Shown in pieces: positions 629 to 54,011 of a stretch of DNA of 64,000 nt; positions within the stretch are counted from its first letter, which is position 1; each line of letters starts with the position of its first letter. The notes below the pieces were generated by a model. That model made no database searches. It had not been told where the DNA came from and saw nothing but the letters and a program-made list of their open reading frames with translations. The position numbers and the translations under genes are program-made. The stretch is from positions 21,450-85,449 of the IMG/VR virus record IMGVR_UViG_3300043395_003277. One strand, written 5' to 3'. This DNA comes from a virus.

Positions 629-1729
629 ATGACACAAACACCGATTGATCCGCTAACTGATGAATGGATGGATAACATCCAAGCTGAAGAAATCACTCCT
701 CCTTCTCTGAAAACTCTCAACAAAATGACTACGAAAAAAACCTCTGCTCTTGCTACACGCGGTCTGGAATCTTTCCAGATGTTCCAGTCCAAAGAATTTG
801 TTTCGGGTTACCAGAACCTGGTCACTATTCAACCACTGAATAAGTCCAAGACTCGTGGCTGGTTTGTCCGCAAGTCTGATCTAGATACTTGCAGTTGGTC
901 CGCAACTGAAGATCAGTTTGCAAAAGGTTCTGTAATCTGGAACTACAAACAAACTTTTGGGATGGCTCCCAACACTTCAACAGAAGAAGGTCTTAACTTT
1001 ACTGAGCCTCGTCTCCAAATTCTGTTGCGTTCTCCACTCATGGTGGAAGAAACTACCGGTATGCGCCAAGTCATTGGCTCGTTTGATCACCCACAAGTCA
1101 AAGAACTTTTTGAGGCTGACAAGATTGCTTCTGATCTTGCCAACAGCAAAGGTGAAATGTACAAGCGTAAGTACAGCGTACGTACAAAATACTTGGTTTA
1201 TATCCTGACCCAGGATAATAAACGTGCCCATAAGATCCCAATGGTGCTGACTCTGAAGGGATTAAACGGTACCGATGTATCGGATAAGATCCGTATCTAT
1301 GAAAAAGAGATGTCCAAGTGCTTGAGTAAAGCGCTGGATTCCGAGGTGCCTTTGGCATTCAACGAAAAGTTTTATGCCACTACAGTATTCTGCCCGGTAC
1401 TTGCAAATGAAATGCGTGGTGCCAACAACGTTGAAATCTGCGCTATCGAATCGTTTGACATCCCTGATTACAGCTCTCAAGAAGATGCAATTGAATCACT
1501 GAATCGTCTTTCTATTCCTGATGAAGATCGGGAATCCACATGGAAGATGCAAGAGATGTTCCAGGATTACATCAATATCCACGCAAAACAAGATGCTCAA
1601 AAGTTAAATGGTGCATATGGAATTAAAGAAGGAGTCGAAATCCTTCCTGCTTCACGCACTACAGAAACAGTAGATGTTAAATCTTTGCCCGCTCGGGATC
1701 CTCTTACTGGTGAAGATTCTGAACTTTGA
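629..1729 (+). CDS. DUF5895-like cyanobacterial/cyanophage protein
   Basis: Motif RTKYLVYIL..DNK..HKIPMVLTLKG; ATG 629 chosen as start within ORF 572-1729. Confidence 0.55.
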   Translation: MTQTPIDPLTDEWMDNIQAEEITPPSLKTLNKMTTKKTSALATRGLESFQMFQSKEFVSGYQNLVTIQPLNKSKTRGWFVRKSDLDTCSWSATEDQFAKGSVIWNYKQTFGMAPNTSTEEGLNFTEPRLQILLRSPLMVEETTGMRQVIGSFDHPQVKELFEADKIASDLANSKGEMYKRKYSVRTKYLVYILTQDNKRAHKIPMVLTLKGLNGTDVSDKIRIYEKEMSKCLSKALDSEVPLAFNEKFYATTVFCPVLANEMRGANNVEICAIESFDIPDYSSQEDAIESLNRLSIPDEDRESTWKMQEMFQDYINIHAKQDAQKLNGAYGIKEGVEILPASRTTETVDVKSLPARDPLTGEDSEL

Positions 1730-51914: not shown

Positions 51915-53353
51915 TCAGACAGTACCGTCATCTTGGACGTAGCTGTAAGCAGTGGTAACAAAGTCCTTATTGAGGATTTCAAAACCAGCGTACAGTTGCC
52001 AAATCAGAATGATAAAGCGGCTGAAGTCATCGTTGTTGTTGATGAGCACCTGAGCGTTCGGGCCGCCGATGCCAACGCCAACAGACTGAGGACCGAAGAA
52101 GAAGCCTTGGGCAACTTCCTTGGAAGCATAAGTCGAACCACCATCGAAAGAAGTGGTGATGTTCTTGGTCGGGAAGTTGGTCGACTCGAAGAACTTAACG
52201 CCTTCAAACTGAACGCCGGTAGGCATCACAGGTTCGCCAGCCAGGAAGTAACCTTGACCAGCCTGAGGACCCATGTAGAAGCTGGCATTGTTCGGCATCA
52301 TGGGGTTGCCCATGTACATGCCTTGGCCAGGGTTACCAGCGTAACGGGCGATCTCACGGAAGTCTGGGTCACGACGCAGGTGCATCATGAAGGTGGGATC
52401 GCAAATGCAGCGATACAGGCCATCAGCGAACGTAGGGGTGTTGCGCTTACGCAGATCCTTAACAACGTTCAGAAGGTCGGTACGCACCGAGAACTGCTGC
52501 AGGTCGGCAGTGTACTCAGTACCGGTGTAGGAGATACGACCGGAAGAATCCTTGGTTTTGCCACCGGGGAAGAAGTAGCCACCTTGGGTGGTAGAAGCAG
52601 CACCATTGGCTTCTGCTTTGGCGAGTTCATCAATGAACACGCGGTCACGCCAACGGCGGTAGTCGTCAAGCAGCGTCAGGCTACCAATCGACTGGTGGAA
52701 CATATTCAGGTTGCCCGAATCCAGCAGCAGACGCTGAGCTGTGATCAGAGTTTCGCGAGCAATCTTGAAGGTGCTGGGCTGGGTCGGATCGCCCGGATCT
52801 GCAGGACCGGTGTATTCCTTAAGCACCACCAGGACCTTTTCCTTGGTGATGTTACGGCTGTTAGCGGTACCAATCGTTTGATCGGCAATACGCTCACGGC
52901 TGTCCTTAGTACCAGGGGTACCCCAGAACTTATAGCGATCTAACTGAACGGTTTGACCGGGCTGACGGGTGAAGTCGTGGACAACCACAGGCTCCACAGC
53001 CATTTCGGCAATGTAAGCAGGATGGGGACGATAGAGTTCCGCACCCAAGATTTTTGGAAAATCGTTCTCCTGGTCTCTAGTTTCTTAGAGGGGTGGACTA
53101 TCTCTTCATCCCTGTGGGATGCCGGACGCTAAATCTGGTATTACGTAACAAGATCGTGTTACCCCCAGTAGTCTCTGCACCTTCCAATCACGACTTGATT
53201 GGCTTGGCTCAGGATTACCCTCGTCTTTACGTTAGGGCTTCCCTGAATTCATCCGGTTTGCACCCATCAATTACTCGATGGGGTGACAACGTTGAGCGTT
53301 CAGTTGAAGCAATTTATTGCTTACCAGGACCTGAACCAGCTATCAATAAACAC
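51915..53353 (-). CDS. Major capsid protein, spliced join(53353..53342,53066..51915), 387 aa
   Basis: GGAGG RBS, GTG TTT ATT GAT exon 1, in-frame AAC GAT TTT CCA exon 2 (MFIDNDFPKILGAELYRPHP); strong codon bias; lies after portal and scaffold. Confidence 0.85.
53067..53341 (-). ncRNA. Group I self-splicing intron, ORF-less, 275 nt
   Basis: P AAUUCAGGGAA, Q AAUCCUGAGC, R GUGCAGAGACUA, S AAGAGAUAGUCC; P3 CCGGAUG/CGUCCGG; IGS CGUUGUCA pairs exon UGAU (U-G) and AACG; terminal G. Confidence 0.93.
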
Positions 53354-53450
53354 CTTGGTTTATCCTCCAGTGTCAGTGTTTTTATCGGGTGAAAGATAAA
53401 GACACGTGTGCCTTATCTAACACAAATTTTAGCAGGTAGTAAACTTAAAG

Positions 53451-54011
53451 TTACATGTACTGCATGGTTGGTGCTTTGTAACGAGCACCTTCTGAATTGC
53501 TGGAACCATAAGATTCTGGATCAATGGCACCACCTTGAACGAAACCAGGCACACCGAGAGCGCCAGGAATCGCACCAAGGGCAACACCACCTAAACCAGC
53601 TGCGCCAGCGGCAGCAGGTGCGCCGAGGCCAGCAGTGAGCCTAGATACCAATTGCTGACCTTTCGGACCAACAGTGGCACCCTCAGCTGCCGCAATAATA
53701 TCGGCAGCTTTACCAACAATTTGACTGCGCTTATTCGCGCCTTCTGGCAGATTGCGGCCAATGTCGCCAACAATGTTGCCGAGTGGAATAACAGCTTTTT
53801 CTTGCACTGCATTCAGTAATTCTGGGGCATATTTACCAGCCAGACGACCAGCACCTAATGCACCTCGTGCACCAAGAGCAGCACCTAAGCCGCCAAGGAT
53901 TGCACTACCTGGATCTTCACCCTGTGCAGAAAGAGCCCCGCCAACTGCCAGACCGGCAGCGGCGGGAACTCCGTATGCAATCAGAGGACGAGTTTGTCCT
54001 AATGGTCGCAT
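53451..54011 (-). CDS. Gly/Ala-rich membrane-like protein
   Basis: Several GxxxG hydrophobic segments. Confidence 0.55.
   Translation of the reverse strand: MRPLGQTRPLIAYGVPAAAGLAVGGALSAQGEDPGSAILGGLGAALGARGALGAGRLAGKYAPELLNAVQEKAVIPLGNIVGDIGRNLPEGANKRSQIVGKAADIIAAAEGATVGPKGQQLVSRLTAGLGAPAAAGAAGLGGVALGAIPGALGVPGFVQGGAIDPESYGSSNSEGARYKAPTMQYM

Follow-up and report, generated by a model that had tools for sequence, protein, structure and literature searches.

In group I introns, which are textbook ribozymes, choice of the 3' splice site is attributed to the P9.0 and P10 pairings together with the terminal G. The 64,000-nt stretch of viral DNA analysed here (the window) raises the question of whether another helix may take part in this task. 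On its minus strand, the major capsid gene of an S-EIV1-like cyanophage is interrupted after its first 12 nt by a group I intron with an enlarged P1 loop (L1), and seven nucleotides at the base of this loop are complementary to the seven that precede the terminal G. Whether the two strands behave as a selected RNA helix, and whether such a helix would assist splicing, delay it or have another origin altogether, is addressed below. The gene and the position of the intron are defined by the following features:

53364 to 53368, minus strand: Shine-Dalgarno-like GGAGG of the capsid gene, read from the sequence, 10 nt 5' of the GUG start and kept in clade-1 relatives.
53342 to 53353, minus strand: exon 1, four codons (GUG UUU AUU GAU, M F I D), with the same beginning as the uninterrupted S-EIV1 gene and 42 uninterrupted alleles among 80.
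53067 to 53341, minus strand: group I intron of 275 nt, ORF-less and IA-like (P7.1/P7.2 extension), assigned from Rfam RF00028 and an 81-pair model.
53067, minus strand: terminal G (omega G) at the 3' splice site; the junction is deduced from uninterrupted alleles, and RNA-library contigs join 53342 to 53066 with an ambiguity of 1 nt.
51915 to 53066, minus strand: exon 2, major head protein gene (NDFPKILGAELY...), matching PHROG 1357 major head protein (E 2.7e-16).

The intron is inserted after codon 4 of the major head gene. Its ends were set by comparison with the uninterrupted S-EIV1 gene (MFIDTDFPKIL) and with related capsid loci (n=80), 14 of which contain the intron while 42 are uninterrupted and read GTGTTYATTGAT followed directly by AAYGAY at the insertion site. 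The Shine-Dalgarno sequence and the start codon are both located 5' of the intron and are left unchanged by splicing. Contigs joining the two exons at the predicted junction were found in three of four RNA libraries, but the common intron-less alleles, which occur as DNA, could give the same contigs and these were dropped as evidence of splicing. One intron contig from the RNA libraries terminates precisely at G53067. No report of an intron in S-EIV1-type capsid genes was found in the limited collection of literature searched.

The match to RF00028 scores 92.5 bits, above the gathering threshold of 50, spans model positions 1-253 (E 1.8e-22) and was obtained again with the whole record. In the 81-pair intron model, which comprises core helices P3-P8 and the P7 pseudoknot, pairing amounts to 98.1% versus 27-41% when partners are slid, and 14 pairs changed on both sides versus 5.3 in shuffles, none of 500 shuffles being that high. 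Subgroup IA, as defined by Michel and Westhof, has extra P7.1 and P7.2 hairpins between P7 and P3. Both hairpins are present here (CUGG/CCAG and GUAACA/UGUUAC at 53168-53135), and some relatives have an alternative P7.1/P7.2 module in which pairing is still intact. Elements surrounding the two splice sites are as follows:

53339 to 53345, minus strand: 5' strand of P1, UGAU followed by AGC, pairing with 53290-53284; the 5' splice site falls after U53342, at a U.G wobble.
53284 to 53291, minus strand: internal guide sequence, composed of GUUGUCA (P1 3' strand, 53290-53284) and of CGUU (53291-53288), which can pair with AACG of exon 2 (P10).
53331 to 53336, minus strand: 5' strand of P1a, GUUCAG, the P1 extension closing L1 (partner CUGAAC, 53303-53298).
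53298 to 53303, minus strand: 3' strand of P1a, CUGAAC, covarying with GUUCAG.
53307 to 53322, minus strand: tip hairpin AAGCAA-UAAA-UUGCUU, the site of a ca. 580-nt antisense HNH homing endonuclease gene (HEG) in relatives; its stem varies among ORF-less copies and stays paired.
53091 to 53095, minus strand: J7/9, CACCC, whose CC could make a 2-bp P9.0 with the GG of the tail and so rival the loop-tail helix, judging from its sequence and from relatives with a 3-bp P9.0.
53075 to 53090, minus strand: P9 hairpin CUCUA-AGAAAC-UAGAG, whose 3' strand runs straight into the tail without a gap.

The assignments of P1, P1a and the guide sequence, on which the geometry of the loop-tail helix depends, are backed by covariation. 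The splice-site U.G of P1 is invariant (84/84), the outer pair is U-A in 65 cases and C-G in 19, and four of the six P1a pairs covary across clades. P10, formed by CGUU (53291-53288) and the AACG that follows G53067 in exon 2, was read from the sequence and is invariant in clade 1. The P1 proposed by Rfam itself, a local hairpin across the splice site, was rejected because it places the splice site out of frame when compared to uninterrupted alleles. Within L1, which is about 47 nt long in the window intron, the helices GUUCAG (53336-53331)/CUGAAC (53303-53298) and AAGCAA (53322-53317)/UUGCUU (53312-53307) noticed in a preliminary description of this DNA are indeed present, and both covary in relatives. 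As for P9.0, the partner of the 7-nt tail is located in L1 (53329-53323), and J7/9 would provide CC/GG at most. The two strands of the putative loop-tail pseudoknot are:

53323 to 53329, minus strand: 5' strand, the L1 7-mer UCCUGGU, antisense of the HEG codons TAC CAG GAT in HEG-bearing relatives.
53068 to 53074, minus strand: 3' strand, the 3' tail ACCAGGA, immediately followed by G53067.

A script confirmed that UCCUGGU (53329-53323) and ACCAGGA (53074-53068) are exact reverse complements, as previously noticed, with G53067 directly 3'. When the intron body was shuffled 20000 times with its dinucleotides preserved, an exact 7-nt complement of the tail arose at any position in 417 shuffles and within the P1-loop span in 75. 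The energy of the duplex is -10.3 kcal/mol and the helix is included in the nested MFE fold (whole-fold z = -3.43); as a pseudoknot across P1 and P1a, it forces any nested fold to pick one or the other. The sequence CUGGU at nt 3-7 of the window intron was considered as an alternative partner of the tail and was dropped, nt 4-5 being variable (UAG, UGG, UUG, GGG) while the tail is constant. In the limited collection of literature searched, no pairing between L1 and the 3' tail has been described.

Conservation of the helix was assessed in 98 distinct complete related introns from IMG/VR, 90 of which have UCCUGRU at the base of L1. Seven Watson-Crick pairs are formed in 86 of these 90; in three others only the terminal pair is affected (U x C), the last one (L392) has a single G.U, and internal mismatches do not occur. 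Covariation among homologs had been suggested as a check of the 7-bp pairing, and the result is in its favour: the helix is kept in 89 of the 90 carriers of the loop element, counting the three that lack the end pair. At pair 30/836 (alignment A1), clade 1 has G-C, and the 23 clade-2 loci all have A-U. One clade-1 intron (L167) displays the A-U state. Over 284 non-HEG columns, the loop G to A is the sole change private to this intron and, as its exon 2 is 98% clade-1 and 71% clade-2, the A-U state is unlikely to have been imported from clade 2. Judging from the alignment, the variable pair appears to have switched between G-C and A-U at least once between clades and again in this clade-1 contig. 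Variation is nevertheless confined to one of the seven pairs, so that the covariation amounts to one or two events plus one G.U intermediate, among introns that are closely related and whose clades swap modules (P7.1/P7.2). No covariation of the helix was obtainable from distant ribozyme relatives, in which P1 loops are short.

The pairing is also perfect in 13 distinct copies that have no intact HEG (12 ORF-less and one partly deleted), while adjacent unpaired positions vary in the same copies (intron nt 4, 5, 12 and the tip hairpin). Divergent tails (AUCAGGU, ACUAGGU, AUUAGGA and AAACACU) were found only in introns that have no loop partner or a noncomplementary loop element. The pairing is missing from eight distinct related introns inserted at this same site and is therefore accessory. 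These helix-free introns correspond to L085, L091 and L168 with short loops, a minimal-loop group (6 loci, tail AUUAGGA), L422 and the HEG-bearing L226. Among helix-free relatives, the short-loop introns and L226 have a 3-bp P9.0 that uses the last three bases of the tail; in clade 1, in clade 2 and in introns with short or minimal loops, the AGG of the tail does not vary. Compensation for a weak P9.0 by the helix was retained as an explanation only in part, the minimal-loop group having the same weak J7/9 as the window intron (CACCC) and being helix-free. The closest out-group introns, in a Vibrio phage terminase gene and a Klebsiella phage tRNA gene, also differ from the window intron in having an ordinary 3-bp P9.0 and no loop-tail helix.

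In most relatives, L1 houses an antisense HNH homing endonuclease gene (192-aa ORF; Pfam HNH_3, 3.4e-10; PHROG 59, 5.7e-27). The endonuclease ORF is absent from the window intron, which is an ORF-less deletion derivative of the HEG-bearing form. The L1 7-mer is the antisense of Tyr-Gln-Asp (TAC CAG GAT), among the final codons of the HEG, and the stop codons of the HEG and of the exon-1 frame overlap in the palindrome CTAG. Of the seven loop positions, five are non-synonymous for the HEG, so the constancy of these five in HEG-bearing copies needs no RNA explanation. Upstream, 152 of 182 degenerate codons are variable at the third position, whereas of the last six codons four are invariant and two show singletons; a search of IMG/VR for an HEG copy with CAG replaced by CAA gave 0 matches. 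The gene is antisense in every HEG-bearing copy examined, and all 20 HEG-relative loci searched have a group I core on the other strand.

The complementarity, its conservation and covariation, its overlap with the HEG and its dispensability in some lineages are all observed. The explanation that accounts for them best, although we hold it tentatively and at somewhat less than an even chance, is that the 7-bp pairing is a pseudoknot tethering the 3' splice site to the P1 domain. It would be a selected helix of the intron strand, made of the base of the enlarged P1 loop and of the seven nucleotides linking P9 to the terminal G. With no nucleotide between the tail and the 3' strand of P9, the helix could stack on P9; its far end would abut P1a, and the terminal G and the first bases of exon 2 (AACG, forming P10 with CGUU) would therefore be kept beside the P1 substrate helix. 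In this way the helix would constitutively clamp the 3' splice site, much as an extended P9.0 would but by means of an unusual partner strand, and we infer that the helix promotes rather than delays the second step of splicing. Regarding its origin, the loop partner would have been fixed earlier because it is the antisense of the last HEG codons (Tyr-Gln-Asp), the ribozyme tail appearing to have adapted to the loop sequence; the window intron would be an ORF-less descendant in which the helix was retained. Against such a clamp, the GG of the tail may serve a canonical P9.0 with J7/9, in which case the helix would compete with the active fold.

The first descriptions of P9.0 and P10 reportedly concerned the T4 sunY and Tetrahymena introns. 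These pairings determine where group I introns have their 3' splice site (PMC11417360, PMC3984707), and in engineered Tetrahymena constructs an accurate second step needs a duplex adjoining the terminal G, largely regardless of sequence (PMC11417360). The loop-tail helix resembles them in using the nucleotides immediately 5' of the terminal G and in adjoining P10 (AACG/CGUU). Unlike P9.0, it has 7 bp versus 2-3 and joins the tail not to J7/9 but to an internal loop located at the foot of the P1 extension.

An alternative that we regard as unlikely is a regulatory or timing switch, in which the helix would act as an anti-P9.0 that holds the nucleotides before the terminal G off J7/9 and the G-binding site, thereby blocking use of the 3' splice site or hydrolysis until it is melted. 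Melting could be brought about by a ribosome translating the four-codon exon 1 into L1, or by a rearrangement following GTP attack, and maturation of the capsid mRNA would then be coupled to translation or GTP. The helix and a P9.0 between J7/9 and the tail indeed want the same GG, the tail AGG is invariant, helix-free relatives have a 3-bp P9.0, and a pseudoknot over P1 and P1a makes the nested fold choose. However, 2-bp P9.0 pairings are normal in other introns, which makes competition with P9.0 possible at most, and several lineages at the same insertion site have dropped the helix with no evident replacement.

Translation of exon 1 is the part of this alternative that can be followed in the sequence. 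Since exon 1 is 12 nt long, a ribosome initiating or terminating there must cover P1 and P1a and, in the window, the 7-mer as well. The preliminary description had reported a stop codon overlapping the 7-mer:

53321 to 53323, minus strand: UAA stop reached in unspliced RNA by the exon-1 frame (MFIDSWFRSW*), from translation starting at GUG 53353.

On unspliced RNA, the frame from GUG 53353 does read (M/V)FIDSWFRSW* and its UAA begins with the last U of the 7-mer, but the overlap is limited to some ORF-less copies, namely those that lost the UAG at intron nt 4-6, which counts against the switch. All HEG-bearing clade-1 copies (52/52) end the frame at this UAG, and clade-2 copies likewise stop immediately after AGC. 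Translation is known to interfere with intron folding, and in-frame stops are known to occur near the 5' end of introns: according to the review PMC3984707, splicing of the T4 td, nrdB and sunY introns depends on translation and in-frame stops lie shortly past the 5' splice site. The window intron is like these, as described there, in interrupting a phage protein gene, in being IA-like with P7.1/P7.2 and in having an in-frame stop a few nucleotides past the 5' splice site; an interplay between ribosome and P1 is possible in both cases. It is unlike them in its exon 1 of four codons, in the antisense HEG located in L1 of its relatives and in a tail that pairs with L1 and not with an exon.

A precedent had been put forward for such a switch, that of the allosteric group I ribozyme of C. 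difficile, which is reportedly controlled by a c-di-GMP-II riboswitch and whose splicing is said to create or unmask a translation start. Both are bacterial-type group I introns at the very beginning of a coding region, where alternative pairings could gate expression; here, unlike in C. difficile, the ribosome-binding site and start codon precede splicing and no alternative splice site is evident. The parallel also fails for want of a ligand aptamer or other RNA family adjoining the intron, no Rfam family besides RF00028 being detected in the window at gathering scores and none except the intron in 52950-53550 at E <= 1, a search that covers catalogued families; L1 itself has only about 47 nt. 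The earlier claim of a novel helix is thus retained in part: the pairing behaves as a selected RNA pairing, kept in 89/90 cases with matched G-C and A-U states, whereas the proposed switch, which would make capsid output depend on translation, GTP or a phage factor, is unsupported. In its strongest form, in which the helix would be an anti-P9.0 lock on the terminal G, opened by ribosome traffic on exon 1 or by the first splicing step and gating the capsid gene without any protein, this alternative is distinctly doubtful. If true, translation or GTP status would control production of the major capsid protein in a widespread lineage of freshwater cyanophages, and the RNA switch responsible would be built from the antisense of the last codons of a homing endonuclease.

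It is also improbable that the pairing is a relic or hitch-hiker with little or no effect on splicing, the loop 7-mer being kept for the end of the HEG (or, in ORF-less copies, by recent deletion) and the tail for P9.0 or core contacts. The 7-mer is the antisense of TAC CAG GAT, and L226 retains CCUGGU through the same Tyr-Gln codons while its tail, AAACACU, is noncomplementary; in addition, helix-free introns persist and the end pair is lost in three distinct sequences. Such a history would leave unexplained the matched G-C/A-U states (86/90 fully paired, no mismatched combination and the paired double change of L167), the frozen synonymous sites of the HEG and the chance level of the match.

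Finally, a role on the opposite strand, by a 5'-3' pairing affecting stability or translation of the antisense endonuclease transcript, or at the DNA level, as a 7-bp inverted repeat for recombination of the HEG with the core, is very unlikely: all pairs but one are Watson-Crick and equally feasible in antisense RNA, and the HEG and group I core are consistently on opposite strands, but the helix is perfect in 12 distinct ORF-less introns, where there is no endonuclease transcript for it to act on, the L392 intermediate is G.U, a legal pair, in the intron strand alone and A x C in the antisense strand, a promoter scan for an antisense transcript spanning the tail complement gave nothing above shuffles (a weak test), and a recombination repeat of 7 bp would be very short.

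Antisense endonuclease genes in phage or bacterial introns were not encountered in the limited literature collection searched. As in the nuclear rDNA group I introns described in PMC9548176, the HEG of the relatives lies on the strand opposite the ribozyme. Those described there are eukaryotic His-Cys box genes expressed with spliceosomal introns, whereas a phage HNH gene is found here; unlike in that description, its stop codon overlaps that of the exon-1 frame in CTAG, and its last codons also provide the ribozyme with a pairing strand. The intron of a cyanophage DNA polymerase gene, as far as its partial description goes, is similar in its cyanophage host, its group IA type and its HNH homing endonuclease; it differs from the present one in the gene interrupted, here a capsid gene, and in that no loop-tail helix is reported for it.

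As a 7-bp pseudoknot of the P1 loop with the 3' tail, for which compensatory variants occur naturally, the pairing would represent a new way to present a 3' splice site. It is associated with a three-way overlap in which an antisense HEG occupies the P1 loop, its stop shares CTAG with that of the host frame and its last codons form a ribozyme helix on the other strand. S-EIV1-like cyanophages are common in lakes and, with the element located in their major capsid gene, any effect on splicing efficiency would bear on virion production. The population is naturally polymorphic, with the intron in 14/80 loci and uninterrupted alleles in 42/80, and constitutes a good system for studying gain and loss of the intron and of its endonuclease.

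The virus record that contains the window is 85,449 bp long with terminal repeats, and its nearest named relative is Synechococcus phage S-EIV1. An Rfam search detected one group I intron on the minus strand (RF00028, 92.5 bits) and no other RNA family, either in the window or, at E <= 1, in 52950-53550. The gene split by the intron encodes the major head protein (PHROG 1357, E 2.7e-16). In S-EIV1 this gene is uninterrupted and starts with GTG TTC ATT GAT ACC GAC TTT (MFIDTDFPKIL); among the 80 closest IMG/VR capsid loci, 42 are uninterrupted and read GTGTTYATTGAT joined to AAYGAY, 14 carry the intron and 24 could not be assigned, being truncated or too divergent. Because the uninterrupted S-EIV1 gene and alleles show the joined sequence, the exon and intron limits could be fixed (a slash marks the splice site):

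53353-53342, minus strand: exon 1, four codons, 12 nt
53341-53067, minus strand: group I intron, 275 nt
from 53066, minus strand: exon 2, major head protein gene
53345-53339 with 53290-53284, minus strand: P1, UGAU/AGC with GUUGUCA, U.G wobble at the splice site
53291-53288, minus strand: possible P10, CGUU complementary to AACG of exon 2

An imperfect hairpin, AGAUAAGGCACACGUGUCUUUAUCU (53397-53421, minus strand), lies between the end of the upstream gene (53451) and the capsid SD. S-EIV1 and relatives of clade 1, the clade of the window's intron, share this hairpin, which may function in termination, processing or stability.

The preliminary description had proposed that a 7-mer in L1 pairs with the 3' tail of the intron, and all the elements that it listed were found where it had placed them: UCCUGGU (53329-53323) and ACCAGGA (53074-53068), the latter immediately 5' of G53067, are exactly complementary. 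In dinucleotide shuffles a complement of the tail arose in 417 of 20000 cases anywhere in the intron body and in 75 of 20000 within the P1-loop span. The duplex (-10.3 kcal/mol) is present in the nested MFE fold and, since it crosses P1 and P1a, constitutes a pseudoknot; its L1 strand sits one nucleotide away from P1a and its tail strand runs on from the 3' strand of P9 with no spacer. This loop-tail helix would represent a new peripheral variant of the group I intron.

Pattern and protein searches of IMG/VR yielded 98 distinct complete introns at the capsid site, 90 of which have UCCUGRU at the base of L1. Seven Watson-Crick pairs with the tail are formed in 86 of these 90; in three (L104, L137 and L149) the sole defect is a terminal U x C, one (L392) combines UCCUGGU with AUCAGGA, giving a single G.U, and internal mismatches are absent from all 90. 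At the position of G53324-C53073, clade-1 introns have G-C and every one of the 23 loci of another clade, clade 2, has A-U; the capsid exons of the two clades are only ca. 71% identical. The A-U state also occurs in L167, a clade-1 intron with a clade-1-like exon 2, in which the loop change is the sole private substitution in 284 columns outside the homing endonuclease gene (HEG, see below). With this single variable pair as its basis, the covariation of the helix is roughly equal to that of P1 or P8 among the sequences compared. Elsewhere, the splice-site U.G of P1 is invariant in 84 distinct relatives, with an outer P1 pair that is U-A in 65 and C-G in 19, and four of the six pairs of P1a (GUUCAG/CUGAAC) covary. 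On 65 clade-1 sequences, an 81-pair intron model is 98.1% paired, versus 27-41% with partners slid, and has 14 doubly changed pairs versus 5.3 in shuffles. When columns 740-773 of the intron alignment were compared, four clade-1 introns (L122, L136, L150 and L161) differed from the rest by a clade-2 type P7.1/P7.2 module (GGCG...CGCC, different inner hairpin), indicating that modules have been exchanged between intron clades.

In 77 of the 98 introns, including 76 of the 90 with the loop element, L1 is enlarged by ca. 580 nt, whose opposite strand codes for an HNH endonuclease of 192 aa carrying a C-terminal helix-turn-helix (for example L038:678-1256, minus strand of the locus, and the same place in L013, L014, L065 and others). 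The position of this HEG corresponds to window 53322-53307; a diverged set (58-65% identity) occupies the same place, opposite a group I core in 20 of the 20 loci searched. The Shine-Dalgarno of the HEG is the antisense of the CCUC adjoining P1a and its last codons, TAC CAG GAT CTG AAC TAG, are the antisense of CUAGUUCAGAUCCUGGUA, a notable overlap between a ribozyme element and an antisense homing endonuclease gene; in the literature searched, antisense endonuclease genes in introns were found only in nuclear rDNA introns. The palindrome CTAG supplies both the HEG stop and the UAG that terminates the exon-1 frame. Of 182 degenerate HEG codons, 152 vary at the third position; in the final six codons of the gene, four do not vary and two show singletons, one being the compensated change of L167, and a scan for CAG->CAA copies found none. 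The helix is perfect in twelve distinct ORF-less forms (the window and eleven others), in which a short hairpin replaces the HEG, and in one partly deleted HEG form; in copies with no intact HEG it is constant, with intron nt 4, 5 and 12 and the tip hairpin being variable.

The helix is missing from three short-loop introns (L085, L091 and L168), from a minimal-loop group (three distinct sequences in 6 loci, tail AUUAGGA), from L422 (loop deleted, tail AUCAGGA) and from the HEG-bearing L226, with loop GCCUGGU via the same Tyr-Gln codons and tail AAACACU. Such introns at the same site are evidence against its necessity. J7/9 can form a 3-bp P9.0 with the final three bases of the tail in the short forms, in L226 and in out-group introns (Vibrio phage terminase gene and Klebsiella phage tRNA gene), and the window's J7/9 provides only CC/GG; the idea that the helix compensates for a weak P9.0 is not clean, since J7/9 is as weak in the minimal-loop group. 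If the tail GG forms P9.0, this pairing and the loop-tail helix would be mutually exclusive. The divergent L226 has a second Rfam group I match further downstream in the capsid gene (877-1148, minus strand, 65.7 bits) and thus seemingly two introns. The ribozyme core is ca. 76% identical to that of a jumbo-phage tRNA-gene intron (L084:1454-1702, Klebsiella phage Muenster) and likewise to that of Vibrio phage 1.187.O (L083), in which three introns split the terminase gene, indicating a core that moves between widely differing phages and genes.

Overall, the loop-tail helix is probably functional, and the sequence comparisons favour a pairing selected in the intron strand. We tentatively propose that it would clamp the 3' splice site constitutively, which is consistent with findings on engineered ribozymes, whose second step proceeds accurately with an arbitrary duplex next to the terminal G (PMC11417360). 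A lock or switch, as in the preliminary description, where capsid output was tied to translation, GTP or a phage factor, is unlikely and unproven: the translation argument is physically reasonable, with an exon 1 of 12 nt and P1 necessarily covered by ribosomes, but Rfam detected no ligand-sensing domain in the window, or in 52950-53550 at E <= 1, and the stop overlapping the 7-mer, which does exist in the window, is restricted to ORF-less copies that lost the UAG at intron nt 4-6. It is similarly improbable that the helix is a relic without effect. An antisense or DNA-level role is more doubtful still, as the G.U state of L392 and conservation of the helix in ORF-less copies argue against a role in the antisense strand.

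Logan contigs from four metatranscriptome runs were compared with 52700-53600. In three of the four runs a contig joins 53342 to 53066 (reported as 53065 to 53341, one letter being ambiguous); these contigs and those described next are hints of splicing, short of proof, given that alleles lacking the intron are frequent and RNA libraries may carry contaminating DNA. An 853-nt contig of a HEG-bearing relative runs from 30 nt upstream of the 5' splice site precisely to G53067, which would fit cleavage at the 3' splice site with no 5' cleavage, or an assembly-graph artefact; two other contigs traverse the 3' splice site. The 853-nt contig comes from a poly(A) metatranscriptome library and comprises 5' UTR, exon 1 and the HEG-bearing intron (window 53067 and 53370).

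Finally, a second copy of GAUCCUGGU, absent from the window and from 43 distinct clade-1 UTRs, was observed in the capsid 5' UTR of clade-2 and minimal-loop relatives (16 of 17 distinct UTRs; loci L203-L225 and L385-L433). It lies ca. 39-40 nt upstream of the capsid ATG, partly within a small hairpin (GGAUC...GAUCC) with variable flanks, and could pair with the intron tail via G.U pairs.
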